Source: an uncultured Mycoplasma sp. (GTDB lineage Bacteria > Bacillota_I > Bacilli_A > RF39 > UBA660). Taken from it: a stretch of 59,202 nt of DNA. A model generated the notes under the pieces. It did no database searches. It was not told where the DNA came from and saw only the letters and a list, made by a program, of their open reading frames with translations. Positions 33,319 to 47,622 of this stretch are shown here, in pieces. Numbering within the stretch: position 1 is the first letter of the stretch; each line of letters opens with the position of its first letter. Where the stretch lies: the NCBI GenBank assembly GCA_946500895.1, contig CAMMXG010000004.1, positions 1 through 59,202 on the forward strand, in the 5' to 3' direction. A program made the position numbers and the translations under genes.

Positions 33319-34926
33319 TTATTTTTTACTATCAATGCTAGCTTTAATAAATGAATCAAATAAGGGATGAGGTCTTGTTGGTCTACTCTTAAACTCTGGA
33401 TGAAATTGGCAAGCGATGAAGTGAGGATGATCTTTTAATTCGATTATTTCTACTAAATTACTTTCGGGATTTATTCCAGAGAAAATCATGCCTTTACTTG
33501 CGAGTAGTTCTTTATAGCTATTATTAAATTCATAACGATGGCGATGACGCTCTAATATTTCTTCACTCTTGTAGTCTTCATAGGCTAGAGTTCCCTTATT
33601 AATTTTACATTTATAGTTACCAAGTCTTAATGTTCCTCCTTTGTTAATAATTGCTTTTTGATCTGCCATTAAATCGATAACCGGATTAACACACAATTCA
33701 TCAAATTCCCTAGATGAAGCATTAGTCAGCTTACAAACATGACGTGCAAATTCTATGACAGCAATCTGCATTCCTAGGCAAATACCTAAATAAGGGATTT
33801 TGTTTGTTCTAGCATATTCACAAGCATTAATCATGCCTTCAATACCACGTGATCCGAATCCTCCAGGAACGATAATTCCTTTCGAATTTTTAAATACTTC
33901 CTTTAAATTACAATTTTTACTTTCTAACTCCTCACTATTTACCCATTTAATTTTTATTTTGGTATGATATTTATATCCTGCTGCTTTTAGGGCTTCTTTA
34001 ACAGATAGATAAGCATCTTCTAATTCGACATATTTTCCTACTAAAGCTATTTCTATTTCATCTTTTAAAGATTCTGTTATTTTAATCAAATTCTCCCAAT
34101 GTTCAAGATTGCTTTTACCTGATGGTAAACCAAATTGACTCAATATAATATCTTCAATATGTTGTTTATGGAAATTGATTGGTATTTGATAAATGTTATT
34201 TACATCTTTTGCTTCAATAATGTTTTCAACTGGAATACTTCCAAATAAGGATATTTTCTTTTTAACTGCCTCACCTAAATCGATTGGAGCACGAGTAACA
34301 ATAATATCCGGCTGTATTCCTAGTCTACGAAGTTCAATAATACTATTTTGAGTTGGTTTCGTTTTTAGTTCATTGGAACCAAATAAATATGGCACTAAAG
34401 TAGTATGAACAAATAGTGAGTTTTCACGTCCTGTTTCTAGTCTGAATTGACGAAGTGACTCCATCATCACCGAAGACTCAATATCGCCAACTGTTCCACC
34501 GATCTCGGTAATTACTATATCAGCACCACTGCTTGTTGCTGCTTCATATATTTTATTTTTTATTTCATTTGAAATATGAGGAACAATCTGAATGGTAGAT
34601 CCTAAAAAATCACCTAATCGTTCTTTTTCAATGACACTTGAATAAATTTTACCATTCGTAATATTTGATGAATAATTTAATTCTTCATCTATAAATCTTT
34701 CATAATGACCTAGATCTAAGTCAGTTTCACAACCATCATATGTTACAAATACTTCACCATGTTGAATTGGTGACATCGTTCCTGGATCCACATTCATATA
34801 GGGATCAAATTTTTGCATAAATACTTTATAGCCTTTTGCTTTCAACAAAAGAGCAATACTTGATGCTGTAATTCCCTTTCCTAGTCCTGAACAAACTCCT
34901 CCTGTTACAAATACATATTTTGCCAT
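33319..34926 (-). CDS. pyrG: CTP synthase
   Basis: [24 protein letters not shown] (glutaminase Cys), HRHRYEFN. The ATG at 34926 follows GAGGTG. Confidence 0.95.
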
Positions 34927-34950
34927 AAAAAACACCTCTTTCTAAAAAAC

Positions 34951-35016
34951 AAAAAAAGCCCTTGGGAGAAACCTTAGGCTCTTTTAAATTATAACATAAT
35001 ATTTTTTTGTACTCAA
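34951..35016 (-). promoter_or_regulatory. pyrG promoter plus leader hairpin/U-tract (possible attenuator)
   Basis: Minus strand TTGAGT (35016-35011), 17 nt, TATAAT (34993-34988). A hairpin GAGCCUAAGG-UUUCUC-CCAAGGGCU starts about at +1, followed by U7 (34957-34951). Confidence 0.45.
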
Positions 35017-35069
35017 TTTGTTTTGTTTCATTTGACTTTTCTTTACTATAATTTTGATTTTAACATTTT

Positions 35070-40532: not shown

Positions 40533-42260
40533 TTATATTTTAAATTTAATCCAAATTTGAGCCATACATTCATAACACTCTTTCTCTTTATTTATACACT
40601 TATTACAATAATTTTGTTTTCTATAATAGTCTTTTCCTAAATCTTTTATCATTTTGTATCCACACTTTTCTAAAATAAATTTAGAATTCACATATTCTCC
40701 GTTATCTCCCCATGCTTCATATATAATATCTTCTTTATTATAATTACTACATAATTTCAGTAATTGAGTGCCTATTCCTTTTCCTTGGTACTTTTTATCA
40801 ACAACTAAATATAAAATTTCTTTGATATTTTTTAAACCTAAATTAAATCTATCTTGCTTTAAAATATCACTTATACCGCATGCTCCTACTATTTTATTAT
40901 TTATCGTGCATACATAGTAATGATTAATATCTTTAGTAATTTCTTCAATATTGCTTTCTAAAATTGAACTTTCTGACTTAATATTACAAGTCCCTAATAA
41001 ATCTGTTACTAGATTGGCAATATCATTAATATCGTTAAAGGTTGCTTTTCTATATTTCTTCTTCAAAACACAAAAACTTTCGACATGATATGTGTAGCTA
41101 AACATATCCATGATTTTAAAATCACAAACTTCATAAATACTTTCAAATTCTTTTAAATCTCTCATTAATGTATTGGGATCACATGATACATAAATTATTT
41201 TGGCTGGTAATTTTTTTAAAATAAATTCTTTCGATTTTTTGTCTAATCCTTTTCTTGGAGGATCAACAATTAATGTATCAAAGTTAAAGTTTATTTTATC
41301 AACAGTTTTAGATACATCACCAAGCATAAATTTAATATTATTTACTTGATTTAATGTAGCATTTTTAATTCCATTTAACACAGCATTTTTAATTATTTCA
41401 ATACTATAGACCTCTTTTGATGCAGAAGCAGCAATGATACCTAATGTTCCAACTCCACTATATAAATCTAGAACTATACTATCATTATCTATATTATTCT
41501 TTATTAAATCAAATAATTTAGAAGTTATATACTCATTTACTTGAAAGAATGAATCAAATGATACTTTAAATAATTTACCACCCACTCTTTCATAAAAGAA
41601 ATTTTCGCCATATATCGTTTTATTGTTGTAAACAATTCCTACTAGTTTTATTTTTTCTTTTAATTTTGCTAATTCAATGTTATATTCTTTTTCTTTTGTT
41701 TCAATTATAATTAATATTTCATTATTATAATTAGATCTAATTGTTAGTTTGGCATTTTCTAAATTTAATAATTTGTAATTCTTAATTACTTCATTAATAG
41801 AATGTTTGGCTGTTATACATTCTTTTATTTCAATCAATTTATGACTACTTTCTTCATAATAGCCTAATGTTCCATTTTCTATTTTCAAACTTACTTTGTT
41901 GCGGTAATAATAAGGATTGTCATTTTTTATAATTTCTATTTCTTTGTTATAATTTATCTTATTTTTCTTTAATAATTCTTTTATTTTGCTTTGTTTAAAT
42001 GTTAAAGTATTTTCATAACTTAAATGTAGTAGATTGCAACCTCCACAGACTTCAAAGTATGGACATTTACTTTCTACTCTATCCTTACTTAATTTTAAAT
42101 ATTTAGTTACTTTAGCTTCACTAAAACTTTTCTTATCATTTATTATTTCTATTTCTACTACTTCTTCTGGTAAAGCATTTTCTATAAAAACAACTTTATT
42201 GTTAATGTGAGCTATTCCTCTTCCAAAGTCATCTAGTTTTTCAATTAATACTTTAGGCAT
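40533..42260 (-). CDS. RumA/TrmA-family RNA (uracil-5)-methyltransferase fused to a C-terminal GNAT acetyltransferase domain
   Basis: TRAM-like N-terminus, Fe-S Cys cluster CPYFEVCGGC, SAM motif LDLYSGVGTLG, YVSCDP nucleophile. After about residue 400, GNAT motif VVDKKYQGKGIGTQLL, and a Cys-rich end CNKCINKEKECYEC. Confidence 0.7.
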   Translation of the reverse strand: MPKVLIEKLDDFGRGIAHINNKVVFIENALPEEVVEIEIINDKKSFSEAKVTKYLKLSKDRVESKCPYFEVCGGCNLLHLSYENTLTFKQSKIKELLKKNKINYNKEIEIIKNDNPYYYRNKVSLKIENGTLGYYEESSHKLIEIKECITAKHSINEVIKNYKLLNLENAKLTIRSNYNNEILIIIETKEKEYNIELAKLKEKIKLVGIVYNNKTIYGENFFYERVGGKLFKVSFDSFFQVNEYITSKLFDLIKNNIDNDSIVLDLYSGVGTLGIIAASASKEVYSIEIIKNAVLNGIKNATLNQVNNIKFMLGDVSKTVDKINFNFDTLIVDPPRKGLDKKSKEFILKKLPAKIIYVSCDPNTLMRDLKEFESIYEVCDFKIMDMFSYTYHVESFCVLKKKYRKATFNDINDIANLVTDLLGTCNIKSESSILESNIEEITKDINHYYVCTINNKIVGACGISDILKQDRFNLGLKNIKEILYLVVDKKYQGKGIGTQLLKLCSNYNKEDIIYEAWGDNGEYVNSKFILEKCGYKMIKDLGKDYYRKQNYCNKCINKEKECYECMAQIWIKFKI

Positions 42261-42331
42261 ATTTACCACTCCATCTTTATTTTATCATGAATACATTTAT
42301 TTTTAAATAAAGAAAAAGCTTGATTTTTTCC

Positions 42332-43966
42332 TCAAGCTTCATTTTCAGTAGTATTGGTTGTGTTCGACTCTTTTACTGTTCCATATACTCCAAAAGTTAC
42401 AGAGTAACTGCTAGTGACTTTTATTTTGATATCATAATATGTTGTGCCTACTTCATCAAAGGTTAAAGTGACTGTTTTACTACTACCATCATATGATTCA
42501 CTAGAAATCACTTGATCATTTTTTAATATTTCTAATGTGTAGTTTTGAGATCTTGATGTATTAAAGGTTACATTTACTGTTTCTCCTAATTTGTAGCTAC
42601 CTGATGAGTAAGAGCTGTATGTACCATTGCTTGCTAATTTTTTTTCTGTTGTTAGAGCACCACTTGTTGTAAAATTTGCTTCAAATTCATGAGGTTGGTT
42701 AGGATTTTCTTTAAAGTAGTGGAATTTACTAATGTTTGAAGATAAAGTGTAGTGATAAATTGGTAACTCTGTATCGGTTTTGCCAAAATAATCATAGCTA
42801 GTTCCTTTACTATCTTCAATTTGCGGATCAAAAATATAATAAGTTCCCCCAGCTTTAATCATAACCCAAGCATGTCCGGTGGTTCCGCCTCCTACTTTGT
42901 TAACACTACCACCTACCACATATGCATCAAAACCAATCCGTCTTGCTAAAATCATAAATAATGCTGCATAGTTATCACATACGCCTTTTCCAGTTGATAA
43001 GGAATATTTGGCACGCATTACATCCATACCGTCATAATCATAATAACTGTATGTATCTTGCATTTTCCATAGTTCATTTAAGTCAAGTACCATCATTTCA
43101 TAGCTAAGTTTGTTTTTAACATAATTATAAATAGCTTGTAATTTTTCATAGTTTGACATACTACTTTTAGTTACACTTGAGATGATACTTGCTATTTGAC
43201 TGTCTAATTCAGAATATCTAGTTGTAAGTGGTGATAAGGAAACACTATTAATCGCTGATTTAAAATTAGAACTTGTGTTATTTGAATTATTCGTATTATT
43301 ATTTGTATTATTTGATGTTGTGTTATTGTTTTTATTATTTGTTGTATTATCGGAACTATTTGTTTCTTTTTTGTCATCATCATTATTTTTTTCATCAACA
43401 ATATGAACAACTAAACTTGCTGTTCCTTTGTTTTGTGCTTTATCTGTAAGAGTATAATTAACTAAGTAATCTCCTACTTTTTTAGCATCGACATTACTTT
43501 CGATATCAACAGCTTCTATCGATACCTCATCATAATTATCACTTACTTCGGCAATAAAACTTTCAGCATCAAATTCACTATTTTTTAAAATGTCTACTTC
43601 AGTTTCGGATAAAGTAATTGTTGGGGCAAGTTCATCTACTATTTCTATTTCATAGGTATGTTCATAAGTTTTTCCTTGATAAGTGATGCTTACTAGGACC
43701 TCACTTTTCCCTAAATCTTCAATATTAGAAATAGAATATTCTAGGCTTTTGCCCTGATATGTACATTCTTCATCACATGTAATATCTTTAACAAAATCAC
43801 TTAGATTGATTGAACCATAATTTAATTTATTCACTTCTTTAAATTCAAAGCCACTAAATTCCTCGGGTTCTTTATTTAAGATAAAATGAGAACATAATAT
43901 AAAAATAATAGCAATCAAAATTATTAAACCTATTAAAATATAAATTATTTTTTTCTTTTTTGACAT
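42332..43966 (-). CDS. membrane-anchored transglutaminase-core domain protein with Ig-like domain and Asn/Thr-rich linker
   Basis: N-terminal TM segment, Ig-like DUF5011-type segment (VGDYLVNYTLTDKAQNKGTASL), N/T low-complexity region, GKGVCDNYAALF...GHAWVMIK...FDPQ. Confidence 0.75.
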   Translation of the reverse strand: MSKKKKIIYILIGLIILIAIIFILCSHFILNKEPEEFSGFEFKEVNKLNYGSINLSDFVKDITCDEECTYQGKSLEYSISNIEDLGKSEVLVSITYQGKTYEHTYEIEIVDELAPTITLSETEVDILKNSEFDAESFIAEVSDNYDEVSIEAVDIESNVDAKKVGDYLVNYTLTDKAQNKGTASLVVHIVDEKNNDDDKKETNSSDNTTNNKNNNTTSNNTNNNTNNSNNTSSNFKSAINSVSLSPLTTRYSELDSQIASIISSVTKSSMSNYEKLQAIYNYVKNKLSYEMMVLDLNELWKMQDTYSYYDYDGMDVMRAKYSLSTGKGVCDNYAALFMILARRIGFDAYVVGGSVNKVGGGTTGHAWVMIKAGGTYYIFDPQIEDSKGTSYDYFGKTDTELPIYHYTLSSNISKFHYFKENPNQPHEFEANFTTSGALTTEKKLASNGTYSSYSSGSYKLGETVNVTFNTSRSQNYTLEILKNDQVISSESYDGSSKTVTLTFDEVGTTYYDIKIKVTSSYSVTFGVYGTVKESNTTNTTENEA

Positions 43967-44035
43967 AAACTTAAACTTCCTTTTCTATATTATAGCATAC
44001 TCTAATTTGTTTGGTACCTCTTTTTCAATAATTAT

Positions 44036-44064
44036 TTGACAAAACTTATTTCTCATATTATAAT
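44036..44064 (+). promoter_or_regulatory. consensus promoter of the hisS leader
   Basis: TTGACA (44036-44041), 17 nt, TATAAT (44059-44064). Confidence 0.75.
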
Positions 44065-44087
44065 CTATTTATCGAGGAGATAGTTTT

Positions 44088-44141
44088 ATGAAGAAGACTT
44101 ATTTATTATTACATCATCATCATATTACTACCACTTGCTAA
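44088..44141 (+). CDS. 17-codon leader peptide MKKTYLLLHHHHITTTC with four consecutive His codons
   Basis: GAGGAG lies 8 nt before the ATG. CATCATCATCAT at 44112-44123. Stop codon lies inside the first pairing segment. Confidence 0.6.
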   Translation: MKKTYLLLHHHHITTTC

Positions 44142-44194
44142 ATACAATTGTTGTAGGCGCAAGTGTTATTTTTCGTGCTTGTAGCCTGTTTATA

Positions 44195-44226
44195 AAGCTA
44201 TACAGGCTAACTGTATAGCTTTTTTC
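44195..44226 (+). terminator. intrinsic terminator (attenuator) immediately upstream of the hisS RBS
   Basis: AAGCTATACAG / CTGTATAGCTT perfect 11-bp stem with 5-nt loop and a T-run. The competing helix TAGCCTGT (44182-89) / ACAGGCTA (44202-09) overlaps its 5' arm. Confidence 0.8.
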
Positions 44227-44248
44227 AGTTTTAGAGGAGGATTAAATT

Positions 44249-45541
44249 ATGAAAATTGAAAATGTAAAAGGTACTTTTGATTATTCAGGAAAAGAACAAC
44301 AAATTAGAGAGTATATTAAAGATACTTTAAAAGATGTGTTTAAATTATATGGTTATGAACCACTAGAAACACCTATTATTTGTAACTTTGATTTGCTTGC
44401 TTTAAAATATAATCCAGAGGATGAAATTTTAAAGGAAATTTATAAAGTTACAGACCAAGGGAAAAGGAATTTAGGACTTAGATATGATCTTACCATTCCT
44501 TTTGCTAAGTTTATTACCATAGAAAAAGGGCTTACCCTACCTTATAAGAGATATGAAATTGGAGATGTTTTTAGAGATGGTCCAGTTAAAGCTGGTAGAA
44601 ATAGACAATTTGTACAATGTGATGTTGATGTGGTAGGACTTGATGGAGCTAATATTGAAGAAGAAATCATTTCTATTTTTATTCGTGGTATGAGAGAATT
44701 TGATATTCCCTTTGAAATTAAAATTAATAACCGAAAATTAATGCAAGGCATTATTGAATCTTTAGGTATTACCGGAGAAGAAGAAATTTCAAATGTTATT
44801 AAAACAATTGATAAAATGGATAAGATTCCACGTGAAGACTTGATGAGTGAACTACTTCTTCTAGGAATAACCGAAGATAATCAAGACTTACTGATGAAAT
44901 ACTTTAACATGTCTTTAGATGAATTAAAAGAAGAATTTAAAAATGTTGATAACCAAAATATTGTAGATGGATTACAAGAATTAACTGATTTGATGGAATT
45001 ATTAGATTACTCTTCTTATAGCGAATATATTAAATTTGCACCAACGCTTGCTCGTGGTCAAGAATATTATACCGGAAACGTATTTGAAGTTTATGCGGTT
45101 AACTCTGGTATTAAATCTAGTATTGGTGGTGGCGGTAGATATGATAAACTTATCACGAATTGGATTGATGATGGGAATAGCTATCCAGCTGTAGGTATTT
45201 CTTTTGGACTTAATGTTATTTATGAAATTCTTAAAACCAGAGAAGACTTTGCAAGTAAAAGTATGGTGGATTTATATATTATACCAATGGATACTTTTAA
45301 AGAAAGTTTAAGACTTGCTGATACAATAAGAAATTTTGATATCAAAGTTGAAGTGGAAATGAAAAATAAAAAGGTTAAAAAAGCTTTGGATTATGCAAAT
45401 AGAGTAAATATCCCTTATGTTATTGTTTTAGGTGAAAATGAAATAAATGAAGGAAAAATTAAACTTAAGGAAATGAGTACTGGTAAAGAGTATGAAATAT
45501 CTTTAGATAATATTTCAGAAATCAATAAAGTTATATTATAA
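44249..45541 (+). CDS. hisS: histidine--tRNA ligase
   Basis: LRYDLTIPFAKF, RYEIGDVFRDGP, QFVQCDVDVVG, GGGGRYD. AGAGGAGG RBS. Bidirectional terminator at 45543-45570. Confidence 0.95.
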   Translation: MKIENVKGTFDYSGKEQQIREYIKDTLKDVFKLYGYEPLETPIICNFDLLALKYNPEDEILKEIYKVTDQGKRNLGLRYDLTIPFAKFITIEKGLTLPYKRYEIGDVFRDGPVKAGRNRQFVQCDVDVVGLDGANIEEEIISIFIRGMREFDIPFEIKINNRKLMQGIIESLGITGEEEISNVIKTIDKMDKIPREDLMSELLLLGITEDNQDLLMKYFNMSLDELKEEFKNVDNQNIVDGLQELTDLMELLDYSSYSEYIKFAPTLARGQEYYTGNVFEVYAVNSGIKSSIGGGGRYDKLITNWIDDGNSYPAVGISFGLNVIYEILKTREDFASKSMVDLYIIPMDTFKESLRLADTIRNFDIKVEVEMKNKKVKKALDYANRVNIPYVIVLGENEINEGKIKLKEMSTGKEYEISLDNISEINKVIL

Positions 45542-45554
45542 AACAGAGATTTAA

Positions 45555-46301
45555 TTACCTCTGTTTTTTTAGTATTCTCGATAAAGATTCGCCTTTTTTT
45601 ATTTGCTCTCCAATTAAATATTCTTCGATGTGGATTTGATGATACTCATAATCAAGAGCACATAACCCTTGATAAAGTTTCATGAAAATGATATTAAATG
45701 GATCATACCTTGAGCCACTATTACGAAATCTAACAGTAATTCTTCTTGGATCCATAAGCATTAAATCAGCATCATTTTTATATTTATTAGAAATCAAAGG
45801 TTTGCCAAATTCTAAGATGTAAGTATTTTTTTGTTTTTTTATCTTGATGAATGGTGCTATTTCATCAAAGTACTCATCACTTTTCCAAGTTATCATATCA
45901 TCTTGAACTAAATTTTTATACGGCCCTCTTTCCTTTAAATTCTTTTTGGATTTTTCTCTTCTTTCTAATTCTTCTTTGATTGCTTCATGATAATCTTTTT
46001 TCTCCTCTTCACTCATAAAAATAATATGGTCTATTTCTTCTTTCGTTATTTTACCATATATGTCAGCATTTATTACATCTTGATATAATTTATCAAATAG
46101 AGCATATATCTCATAATTATCTTTTCCAATTATAAAAGTAGGATCACTATCAAAATTTTCTAAAGAAAAGTATAAGTCTAAATTACCTCCGAAAAAGATC
46201 GATAATGTTTTATCGCCATCTCTTTTCAGTTCTATATCATAATAGTTTCCATCATTTCGTTCTTTATATAACGCACATTTTTGGGCTTGCAATGCTCTCA
46301 T
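45555..46301 (-). CDS. hypothetical protein
   Basis: 248-aa ORF with a GGAGG-like RBS (AGGAGGG) upstream. No recognisable motif. Confidence 0.55.
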   Translation of the reverse strand: MRALQAQKCALYKERNDGNYYDIELKRDGDKTLSIFFGGNLDLYFSLENFDSDPTFIIGKDNYEIYALFDKLYQDVINADIYGKITKEEIDHIIFMSEEEKKDYHEAIKEELERREKSKKNLKERGPYKNLVQDDMITWKSDEYFDEIAPFIKIKKQKNTYILEFGKPLISNKYKNDADLMLMDPRRITVRFRNSGSRYDPFNIIFMKLYQGLCALDYEYHQIHIEEYLIGEQIKKGESLSRILKKQR

Positions 46302-46353
46302 TTAAAACCCTCCTAACTTTAATTATCATAACATATTAATCTTTTTTGCTCAA

Positions 46354-46376
46354 GTGGAAAACAACTTGTTATCCAC
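46354..46376. promoter_or_regulatory. inverted repeat overlapping the -35 of the ATPase gene promoter
   Basis: GTGGAAAACAA-C-TTGTTATCCAC (one mismatch). -35 TTGTTA (46366-71), 17 nt, TATAAT (46389-94). Confidence 0.55.
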
Positions 46377-46410
46377 TCTCTTTTAGTGTATAATTATTTT
46401 AGAATAGGTG

Positions 46411-47622
46411 ATGTATTTGAGAACTTTTGATTTTGAACGTGTTAGTATTGTCGAAATTGTAAATGATATTATTTTAGATGCGATAAAAAGGAAAGCTAGT
46501 GATATTCATTTTGATCCAATTGAAGAATGTTTAATGGTGCGTATTCGTATTGATGGAGAATTACAAGATTATGCGAAAATTCCAAATATACTCAAGAAAA
46601 ATGTTGTTACCAGAATTAAAATTATCAGTGGGATGAATATTACCGAAACAAGAATGCCTCAAGATGGAGCAATAAAAAATGTTATTAATCAGGTAGCTTT
46701 AGATCTTCGTGTTTCATCTCTCCCTTGTGTTAATGGCGAAAAAATGGTTATCAGAATTCTTGATTATAGTATGAGTTTAAATGGCCTTGAAAATTTAGGA
46801 TTCTCAGAAATAAATTTAAATAGACTAATAGACATGATAAAAAAACCAAATGGACTTATTTTAGTTACTGGTGCTACCGGTACTGGTAAATCAACTACTG
46901 TTTACTCTATCTTGCAGAAACTAAATACCAAAGAGCGAAATATTATTACAGTTGAAGATCCTGTCGAAATGAAAATTGATAATATTAATCAAGTACAAGT
47001 TTTAAGTGATATTGGACTTACCTTCTCTCATACTTTACGTAGTATCTTAAGACAAGATCCAGATATTATCATGGTTGGGGAAATTCGTGATAATGAAACT
47101 GCTAGAATTGCAGTTCGGGCTAGTATTACTGGTCACCTTGTTTTATCAACAGTTCATACCAATAACTCTTTAACAACCATTGAAAGATTACTCGATATGG
47201 AAGTAGAACGTTATTTACTCGGTAGTGCTCTAACTGGTATTGTTTCTCAAAAATTAGTTAAAAAACTTTGTCCAAAATGTCGGGGAACTAGACCTACTAC
47301 ACCATATGAAAAGAAACTTATCAAAAAACATTTAGGAATTATGGTTAATGAAGTATATACACCTGTAGGTTGCAAGTATTGTAATCATGGATATATGGGT
47401 AGAATTGCTATTCATGAAGTACTTTCTATTAATGAAGAAATTAGAGAAGCAATTACGACAAATGTAGATCGCAAAACTTTAAAAGAACTTGTTTATCACT
47501 CTAAAAAAGATGTTACAACCATGTTTGAGGATGGTCTGTCTAAAGTTATTGAGGGGTTAACTAGTATGGAAGAAATTATGAAAACAATTGATGTAGAAGA
47601 AGAACAAGAATTAGAAGTATAA
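46411..47622 (+). CDS. GspE/PilB/ComGA-family type IV filament assembly ATPase
   Basis: ASDIHFDP, Walker A GATGTGKSTT, IIMVGEIRD, GHLVLSTVHTN, tetracysteine CPKC...CKYC. Start uncertain (ATG 46411 or TTG 46417 after AGGTGA). Confidence 0.85.
   Translation: MYLRTFDFERVSIVEIVNDIILDAIKRKASDIHFDPIEECLMVRIRIDGELQDYAKIPNILKKNVVTRIKIISGMNITETRMPQDGAIKNVINQVALDLRVSSLPCVNGEKMVIRILDYSMSLNGLENLGFSEINLNRLIDMIKKPNGLILVTGATGTGKSTTVYSILQKLNTKERNIITVEDPVEMKIDNINQVQVLSDIGLTFSHTLRSILRQDPDIIMVGEIRDNETARIAVRASITGHLVLSTVHTNNSLTTIERLLDMEVERYLLGSALTGIVSQKLVKKLCPKCRGTRPTTPYEKKLIKKHLGIMVNEVYTPVGCKYCNHGYMGRIAIHEVLSINEEIREAITTNVDRKTLKELVYHSKKDVTTMFEDGLSKVIEGLTSMEEIMKTIDVEEEQELEV

Follow-up and report, generated by a model that had tools for sequence, protein, structure and literature searches.

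The question raised by the DNA analysed here, a stretch of 59,202 nt from an uncultured Mycoplasma sp. (contig CAMMXG010000004.1 of the assembly GCA_946500895.1) that is called the window in the following, is by which kind of element the transcription of its hisS gene, encoding the histidyl-tRNA synthetase HisRS, is controlled. Attenuation by amino-acid leader peptides is textbook knowledge in Proteobacteria but is rare and poorly documented in Bacillota, because T-boxes, riboswitches and RNA-binding proteins dominate there. The leader preceding hisS in the window contains a short open reading frame (ORF) with a run of histidine codons, a chain of mutually exclusive helices and an intrinsic terminator. 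We assign a probability of roughly 80% to the reading that this leader acts as a ribosome-mediated transcription attenuator, by which the level of transcription reaching hisS is adjusted to the supply of charged tRNA-His.

The elements of the leader are compiled in Table 1. The promoter, the Shine-Dalgarno (SD) sequence, the 17-codon ORF and the four CAT codons of the original prediction, which had been drawn up from the letters of the window without database searches, were all found to be present, as were its four mutually exclusive helices. The promoter is the sole perfect (12/12) match within positions 43000-46500, and transcription is predicted from its position to start at about 44071. 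A run of four CAY codons is seen once in the 59 kb, compared with 0.06 occurrences expected by chance. Helix 3:4 takes up the top of the 5' arm and the loop of the terminator and is part of the minimum free energy (MFE) structure of a transcript truncated at 44210. The terminator stem, first described as 11 bp long, was corrected to 12 bp, and the T6 run does not end 5 nt before the ribosome binding site of hisS, as had been stated, but 8 nt before GAGGAGG and 7 nt before AGAGGAGGA, with only the letters CAGTTTT in between. Upon folding, the leader was more stable than all 200 shuffled sequences (z = -3.4), and it is the only terminator-bearing leader with a codon-run short ORF within the window. 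The locus combines an SD-led short ORF carrying a run of the cognate codon with an intrinsic terminator between this ORF and hisS, and with an antiterminator whose formation depends in silico on the position of the ribosome, clearly so in a related leader (L083, see below) and weakly so in the window. Since the gene 5' of the leader, encoding a transglutaminase-like surface protein on the minus strand, is divergently oriented, the terminator cannot belong to this upstream gene.

Table 1. Features of the hisS leader region of the window (segments are numbered 1 to 5 in the direction of transcription)
Feature	Position	Strand	Sequence and remarks
Sigma-70-type promoter	44036..44064	+	TTGACA (44036-41), 17-nt spacer, TATAAT (44059-64); 12/12 match
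SD sequence of the leader ORF	44074..44079	+	GAGGAG; 8 nt 5' of ATG 44088
Leader ORF	44088..44141	+	17 codons plus TAA, product MKKTYLLLHHHHITTTC; read from the sequence
Regulatory His codons, proposed ribosome stall site	44112..44123	+	four CAT codons
Segment 1	44132..44138	+	CACTTGC; partner of segment 2; shares nucleotides with the last leader codons and lies directly 5' of the stop codon TAA (44139-41)
Segment 2	44155..44165	+	AGGCGCAAGTG; partners are segment 1 (via GCAAGTG) or segment 3 (via AGGC and CAAG)
Helix 1:2	44132-38 / 44159-65	+	CACTTGC / GCAAGTG; 7 bp, all perfect; local energy -12.0 kcal/mol
Candidate NusG-dependent or hairpin pause site	44166..44171	+	TTATTT, directly 3' of helix 1:2; fits the TTNTTT consensus
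Segment 3	44178..44189	+	CTTGTAGCCTGT; partners are segment 2 (anti-antiterminator) or segment 4 (antiterminator)
Helix 2:3	44155-58 / 44184-87 and 44160-63 / 44178-81	+	AGGC / GCCT and CAAG / CTTG
Antiterminator hairpin 3:4	44182..44209	+	TAGCCTGT (44182-89) / ACAGGCTA (44202-09); 8 perfect bp, -11.5 kcal/mol
Intrinsic terminator 4:5	44194..44225	+	12-bp stem (44194-44222) AAAGCTATACAG / CTGTATAGCTTT, loop GCTAA, T6 at 44220-25; -16.3 kcal/mol
SD sequence of hisS	44233-41	+	AGAGGAGGA
hisS	44249-45541 (5' part 44249..44541)	+	ATG at 44249; PRK12420-like histidine-tRNA ligase, 430 aa; profile matches

The search for known RNA families in the window at the Rfam gathering thresholds yielded six tRNAs only. 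Neither the T-box model RF00230 nor the His_leader model RF00514 gave a match at these thresholds over the window or at E<=10 on positions 43950-44300, the E<=10 matches consisting of weak snoRNA and miRNA noise only, and an identity of the element as a T-box or as a proteobacterial His_leader was rejected. A tRNA-like or specifier structure was likewise not found in the leader. The hisS product matches TIGR00442 with 338 bits (cutoff 286.75), and its top NCBIfam model is NF009085 of the PRK12420 subfamily with 475.5 bits, which is under the cutoff of 540 of that model. In this PRK12420-like hisS subfamily, none of the 20 scanned loci contains a T-box. The absence of a T-box from the leader, as claimed from the window alone, is thereby confirmed, whereas the accompanying view that a T-box would be expected at this place fails for this hisS subfamily.

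The leader was compared with those of close relatives whose HisRS proteins are 80-95% identical to that of the window. The comparison set comprised six full-length leaders, namely those of the window, L081, L089, L083 (identical to L084), L090 and L091, whereas L082 and L092 are partial since their contigs are cut inside the leader; as the six sequences are few and closely related, their conservation is to be read as consistency and not as statistical proof. In-frame leader ORFs of 15-17 codons with diverging N-terminal residues were detected in all five relatives, the deduced peptides being MKYANLLLHHHHITTTC (L081), MKNANLLLHHHHITTTC (L089), MVNVYVLEHHHHNIHTC (L083), MKNYSLLHHHHFIYTC (L090) and MKITNLTHHHNNFTC (L091), next to MKKTYLLLHHHHITTTC of the window. 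Both promoter hexamers, the reading frame, three to four CAY codons and a stop codon abutting segment 1 are constant in all six leaders, so that the mini-ORF and its His codons, read at first from a single sequence, are conserved throughout the set. A purine-rich SD sequence is also retained in each case (GAGGAG, AAGGGAG, AGAGGG or AGAGGAG), and the distance from the last His codon to CACTTG is always 8 nt in this clade. Outside of HHH(H) and the C-terminal T-C, the leader residues drift even among close relatives, and a constant His run amid drifting residues is what one would anticipate if the ORF is regulatory and does not encode a functional peptide.

The helices are conserved as well. In the conformer 1:2 + 3:4, 97.7% of the alignment cells are paired, compared with 18-44% with slid partners, and in the conformer 2:3 + 4:5 the respective values are 95.8% and 25-53% (n=6). 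Helix 1:2 is paired in 100% of the cells with two one-sided wobble changes, helix 3:4 in 95.5%, and the terminator 4:5 in 98.6% with one compensatory change of a G-C to an A-U pair in L083 and L090. Gaps introduced by MAFFT mask linked changes in segments 2, 3 and 4 that were read by eye: in the L083/L090 subtype, TAGCC of segment 3 is changed to TGCC, GGCTA of segment 4 to GGCA and AGGC-G of segment 2 to GGCAG, and together these changes leave the pairing intact in 2:3 as well as in 3:4. Four hairpins with matched energies were predicted in all six sequences, ranging from -12 to -16 kcal/mol for 1:2, from -11 to -17 kcal/mol for 2:3, from -9 to -11.5 kcal/mol for 3:4 and from -13 to -18 kcal/mol for 4:5. 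Helix 2:3 had been regarded as the weaker one, which applies marginally to the window (-11.2 vs. -11.5 kcal/mol for 3:4) but not to the five relatives, in which it amounts to -11.9 to -16.9 kcal/mol and beats 3:4; the window is the exception. The hexamer TTATTT following helix 1:2 is exact in four of the six sequences and is replaced by GTATTT in L081 and L089.

Some further observations were made on the leaders of this clade and on its outgroup. In L083, positions 2859-2870 can pair with about 2917-2925, and likewise in L090, such that the His codons CAUCAU pair with AUGAUG or GUGAUG; the pairing partner is located just 5' of segment 3, it lengthens 1:2 into a long stem in the MFE structure, and it is absent from the leader of the window. 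A search of metagenome contigs with the pattern TGCTTGNNGCCTGN{4,14}CTATACAGGC, which is devoid of His codons, gave two matches, both of them chance occurrences in GC-rich coding DNA, and was discarded. In the more distant relatives P0008, P0009 and P0010 (61-63% identity), hisS abuts the upstream gene and a leader is missing. In L085 and L088, also hisS relatives with 61-63% identity, hisS overlaps the stop codon of the upstream gene by 4 nt without a leader; the upstream gene encodes a PF18306 (LDcluster4) protein, and the nearest outgroup of the window clade is operonic.

The same layout was encountered in other lineages. A genome scan with a HisRS alignment provided 26 PRK12420-like hisS loci, 21 of which are bacterial and have enough upstream sequence, and a short ORF containing HHH is located just before hisS in nine of these 21 Bacillota loci. 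The group consists of four loci of the B. cereus group (L011, L012, L013 and L025) with the peptide ..SFQLHHHT, one of Viridibacillus (..SQFHHHI), one of Halobacillus (MSYNRSQFHHHIC), one of Paenibacillus (MRTFAFNQLHHHYKKR) and two of Clostridia metagenome-assembled genomes (MAGs) with M..IFLN(Q/E)LHHHRR(S/G)L. Alternative hairpins and a strong terminator follow 3' of all nine HHH leaders, and the leaders of different clades are unrelated in sequence though alike in layout. By comparison, an HHH short ORF was present in 0 of 51 Bacteroidota hisS loci that served as controls and in 14 of 680 random windows of 480 nt (about 2%). The core of the original prediction, a His-codon leader peptide combined with a terminator/antiterminator switch, is in this way sustained by its conservation in the clade, its recurrence in Bacillota and its absence from the controls. 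The remaining loci of the subfamily have a short spacer with only a promoter or are operonic, which makes the leader a patchy and dispensable element.

The chain of five segments can be followed in the B. cereus leader, in which segment 1, CCUUGUAUCC, begins 2 nt past the stop codon and pairs with GGGUACAGGG in segment 2, helix 2:3 is formed by CUUCGUGGGUACAGG and CCUGU..ACCCACGAAG, helix 3:4 by ACCCAC and GUGGGU, and helix 4:5 is the terminator. In each clade, 3-8 nt separate the last His codon from the start of segment 1. A universal gap of 8 nt was dropped as a rule for the family, as the gap amounts to 3-6 nt in Viridibacillus, Halobacillus and L004; it applies to the window clade and approximately to B. 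cereus and Paenibacillus. Two Paenibacillus loci beyond the nine (L020 and L024) contain interrupted His runs, NQLHYYH and NQLHHF (MLNQLHYYHKQR and MYTCSFNQLHHFIKR), about 150-200 nt 5' of hisS and with hairpins and terminator retained, and they may represent decaying or retuned attenuators. The residues before the His run in unrelated clades are (N)Q(L/F) or E-L (SFQLHHH, FNQLHHH, LN(Q/E)LHHH or SQFHHH), a context present in L004, L005, L011-L013, L015, L018, L019, L020, L024 and L025, and the window clade has L(L/E/T)HHH(H) instead; the shared residues may stem from common ancestry, from a stalling context or from an RNA constraint.

With respect to these elements, a mechanism can be proposed in which transcription would start at about 44071 and the first 70 nt of the RNA would carry the 17-codon leader with its four His codons. 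Pairing between neighbouring segments would give a chain of four helices that exclude one another, namely 1:2, 2:3, the antiterminator 3:4 and the terminator 4:5 with its U-run. When His-tRNA is scarce, the ribosome would stall on the His codons with its leading edge short of segment 1 or over its first bases; if the codon in its A site is the first or second His codon, it would reach about 44125-44130 and leave segment 1 (44132-38) free. Helix 1:2 would then form, segment 3 would be free to pair with segment 4, and the terminator could not nucleate, resulting in readthrough into hisS. With an ample supply of His-tRNA, the ribosome would proceed to the stop codon, extend to about 44152 and mask segment 1, which would permit 2:3 and then 4:5 to form, with termination at about 44225. 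Readthrough would thus need helix 3:4 and therefore a segment 2 held by segment 1, which in turn must therefore be free. The TTATTT motif after helix 1:2 may pause RNA polymerase, by means of the hairpin or of NusG, and let the ribosome catch up. TTNTTT is the consensus of NusG pauses, and in the tlrB leader such a pause provides the time in which the leader peptide is translated (PMC11602163); the title of another report on tlrB of B. subtilis likewise links NusG pausing to leader-peptide translation (PMC6851288). An untranslated leader would default to readthrough, because it has no segment A like that of the enterobacterial his leader, and this default sets the five-segment model apart from a trp-like one.

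The polarity of the switch, with readthrough upon stalling and termination when the ribosome reaches the stop codon, agrees with the occlusion folds of L083, in which a stall at the first His codon results in 1:2 and 3:4 and a ribosome at the stop codon results in 2:3 without an antiterminator. It also agrees with snapshots of the window transcript at 44193-44201, in which the stalled state has 1:2 with segment 3 unpaired and the state at the stop codon has 2:3, until segment 4 emerges. Several points weigh against the attenuator as proposed. At equilibrium, the truncated transcript of the window forms 3:4 whichever occlusion is imposed; helix 2:3 competes with it through its AGGC/GCCU half only. 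The B. cereus leaders likewise form 3:4 regardless of occlusion, while the MFE structure of the full-length window leader holds the terminator in every scenario. Equilibrium occlusion folding was thus discarded as a test of the switch, since it works for L083 but fails to separate the scenarios in the window and in B. cereus. The choice between the two outcomes must therefore be made kinetically, as happens in classical attenuators, and the window copy looks, in these folding models, like the least discriminating one of its clade. Moreover, the polarity is deduced from ribosome-footprint arithmetic, and a ribosome that stalls when the last His codon occupies its A site would extend as far as the initial 2-4 nt of segment 1. 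RNA polymerase of Bacillus has been reported to outrun the ribosomes, which works against coupling-dependent attenuation. The covariation anticipated for the helices is seen in so far as the helices are kept and one compensatory pair occurs in the terminator; the covariation statistics are weak, with one double-sided change counted in six close sequences. Finally, HisRS relatives at 52-63% identity without any leader indicate that the element is dispensable for hisS.

The short distance between the last His codon and segment 1 in every clade places this segment within reach of a ribosome located there, and with positions 44133-44136 masked the full-length fold consists of 2:3 and the terminator. 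Both findings would suit the opposite, trp-like polarity, in which the ribosome would mask segment 1 when stalled, leading to 2:3 plus the terminator and to less hisS transcription under shortage of His-tRNA. We regard such a polarity, or a set of true alternative helices other than those described, as unlikely, since it would cut HisRS just when charging limits, opposite to every characterised aminoacyl-tRNA synthetase attenuator and T-box. Starvation stalls should, in addition, gather at the first His codon and leave segment 1 free, and a highly similar leader is reported by Naville & Gautheret in B. cereus before hisZ and before the his operon, which need to be switched on upon starvation (PMC2965389).

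The weak discrimination by ribosome position alone that was obtained in silico for the window could also mean that the switch is real but set by a trans-acting factor, such as HisRS itself, a HisR-type repressor or uncharged tRNA recognised by other means than a T-box, with the short ORF being incidental. Among the regulators of his genes in Firmicutes, HisR is the most frequent one (PMC9413887). There is only a slim chance of such a factor, as the features that a ribosome sensor needs, namely an SD sequence, a reading frame, a CAY run and a stop codon placed on segment 1, remain constant while the other residues of the peptide drift. HHH short ORFs moreover recur with unrelated leader sequences, as opposed to none among the Bacteroidota controls, and the leader shows neither a tRNA-like or specifier structure nor an Rfam match. 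Autoregulation of aminoacyl-tRNA synthetases via leader RNA, which would speak for such a factor, is known, for instance from thrS of E. coli.

The good SD sequence and the conserved length of the ORF would equally be compatible with a functional His-rich peptide, for example a metal-binding one, in which case the hairpins would constitute a plain 5' untranslated region (UTR) with a leaky terminator. This is very unlikely, because the residues outside of HHH(H) and T-C vary and the T-C codons themselves are dictated by the RNA helix formed by CACTTGC; the tie to hisS across lineages and the stop codon, which is always on or beside segment 1, favour a regulatory role. A cryptic or highly divergent T-box overlooked by the Rfam model, which might be suspected since T-boxes are the usual control of aminoacyl-tRNA synthetase genes in Bacillota (PMC2965389, PMC9413887), is the most improbable alternative, as RF00230 gave no match even at E<=10, the leader has no T-box sequence, none of the 20 related loci contains a T-box, and Stem I, a specifier loop and an antiterminator bulge could not be accommodated in the roughly 107 nt from the leader stop codon to the ATG of hisS or the roughly 158 nt from the predicted start to the terminator end.

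Taking the ribosome-mediated attenuator as the preferred reading, the element was compared with known systems. Contrary to the first impression from the window, the idea is not new: a His leader before a Bacillus hisS paralog was already predicted in 2010. Naville & Gautheret (Genome Biol 11:R97, PMC2965389) described 'highly similar' 5' UTRs containing short ORFs with a stretch of His codons, and they predicted a histidine leader peptide before the hisS paralog 'hisS*', hisZ and the his operon of the B. cereus group, which they termed the first amino-acid-specific leader outside Proteobacteria and Actinobacteria. The four B. cereus group loci of our scan belong to the same PRK12420-like subfamily, their HisRS being 43-45% identical to that of the window, and they share with it the short ORF with a His run, the hairpins and an intrinsic terminator directly before hisS, the lack of a T-box, and a chain of five segments in which the ORF ends on or beside segment 1. 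By contrast, apart from the CAY run their nucleotide sequences cannot be aligned, and the pair thus falls outside the clustering threshold of that study (5' UTR similarity with E <= 1e-4). The B. cereus peptide ..SFQLHHHT also stops one codon after the His run, whereas LLLHHHHITTTC of the window has five more codons, and the 'stalled' and 'at stop' positions are therefore 15-24 nt apart as compared with 4-12 nt in B. cereus. The host differs too, being an uncultured gut-type Bacilli or Mycoplasmatota-like organism with 28% GC. With its shared layout, the window element would work like the leaders of Naville & Gautheret, yet it is not a sequence-level member of their cluster.

His-leader attenuators have also been predicted upstream of Firmicute his operons by Ashniev et al. 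2022 (BMC Genomics 23:558, PMC9413887), namely in the B. cereus group, in Peptostreptococcaceae and Lutispora and in six Erysipelotrichales, and these authors called for experimental testing; RF00514 was not found in Firmicutes in that study, and hisS has 0 occurrences in it. According to the published description, those leaders resemble that of the window in having 3-5 consecutive His codons immediately 5' of attenuator, terminator and antiterminator hairpins, and they occur in Firmicutes without HisR and His T-box; they differ in controlling biosynthesis operons, whereas the window leader precedes hisS. The enterobacterial his leader (RF00514, hisL of E. coli and Salmonella) is similar in that stalling at tandem His codons selects among alternating helices. 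We take 1:2 + 3:4 versus 2:3 + 4:5 of the window to correspond to B:C + D:E versus C:D + E:F of the enterobacterial leader. There is no match in sequence or to the covariance model; the window has four His codons instead of seven, it lacks a segment A that pairs with segment 1, so that the untranslated state would default to readthrough and not to super-attenuation, and it precedes an aminoacyl-tRNA synthetase gene instead of biosynthesis genes. In the pheST operon of E. coli, an aminoacyl-tRNA synthetase gene is likewise controlled by a terminator and by a leader peptide with many residues of the cognate amino acid, in a proteobacterium, with a different amino acid and no shared sequence. The T-box RF00230, by which hisS and hisS-aspS are usually controlled in Bacillota, answers to the same signal, the charging of tRNA-His, with the same terminator/antiterminator output, but it senses uncharged tRNA directly and without translation. 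The literature search retrieved no experimental validation of Firmicute His leaders and nothing on 'hisS2'. Experimental precedents for ribosome-mediated attenuation in Firmicutes are the leucine-rich leader of ilv-leu in S. aureus (PMC5794164) and, furthermore, bmrCD (PMC4191407) and tlrB (PMC6851288) of B. subtilis, as judged from titles and abstracts.

The element is accordingly of a kind predicted before, whereas its lineage and its sequence are new. The present data extend the link between His leaders and hisS beyond the B. cereus group to uncultured gut Bacilli, Clostridia MAGs, Paenibacillus, Halobacillus and Viridibacillus, and they add a common five-segment topology despite unrelated sequences together with the lack of a T-box in the scanned loci of the subfamily. 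Several independent sequences are now on hand for testing a known, predicted class, which is absent from Rfam and is therefore missed by current genome annotation. It is a tentative and rather doubtful suggestion that the leader-controlled hisS encodes the only HisRS of a reduced lineage, in which case a translation-coupled leader, and not a T-box, would govern an essential aminoacyl-tRNA synthetase of a Bacillota-type organism, with readthrough as the default of the five-segment chain and a conserved TTNTTT pause that lets the ribosome catch a polymerase by which it is normally outrun. If true, the locus would provide a compact natural test case for local coupling of transcription and translation in Gram-positive bacteria.

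The window as a whole has a GC content of about 28% and encodes murB, murG and an FtsQ-type protein. The closest named relatives of its HisRS, with 54-57% identity, belong to uncultured 'Bacilli' MAGs and to Candidatus Faecisoma (Mycoplasmatota incertae sedis), and the scan of genome contigs gave no species above 56% HisRS identity to the window. A second leader with a hairpin was noticed at pyrG (CTP synthase, 33319-34935, minus strand), upstream of which a TG-extended promoter, TTGAGT-17-TATAAT, is located within 34950-35020 (minus strand). Its leader contains, a few bases past the -10 hexamer, a terminator-like hairpin with a U-run, AAAAGAGCCUAAGGUUUCUCCCAAGGGCUUUUUUU, of -12.4 kcal/mol; a GGG is not evident at the predicted start, and there was no Rfam match to this leader in the scan of the window. 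The hairpin resembles the CTP-sensing reiterative-transcription attenuator of Bacillus pyrG. Positions 40533-42269 (minus strand) encode a 578-aa fusion of an RlmD/TrmA-type RNA uracil-C5 methyltransferase (residues 1 to about 404) with a C-terminal GNAT acetyltransferase (about 405-567), and the counterpart in L083 is a methyltransferase of only 403 aa without the GNAT part. Two genes 3' of hisS, at 46408-47622 (plus strand), the window encodes an ATPase of the GspE/PilB/ComGA type, belonging to type IV pilus or competence systems. The downstream order, consisting of a 248-aa gene of unassigned function on the minus strand followed by the T2SSE ATPase gene, is retained in L082, L083 and L089, and the upstream neighbour varies among these three, which suggests rearrangement 5' of the leader.

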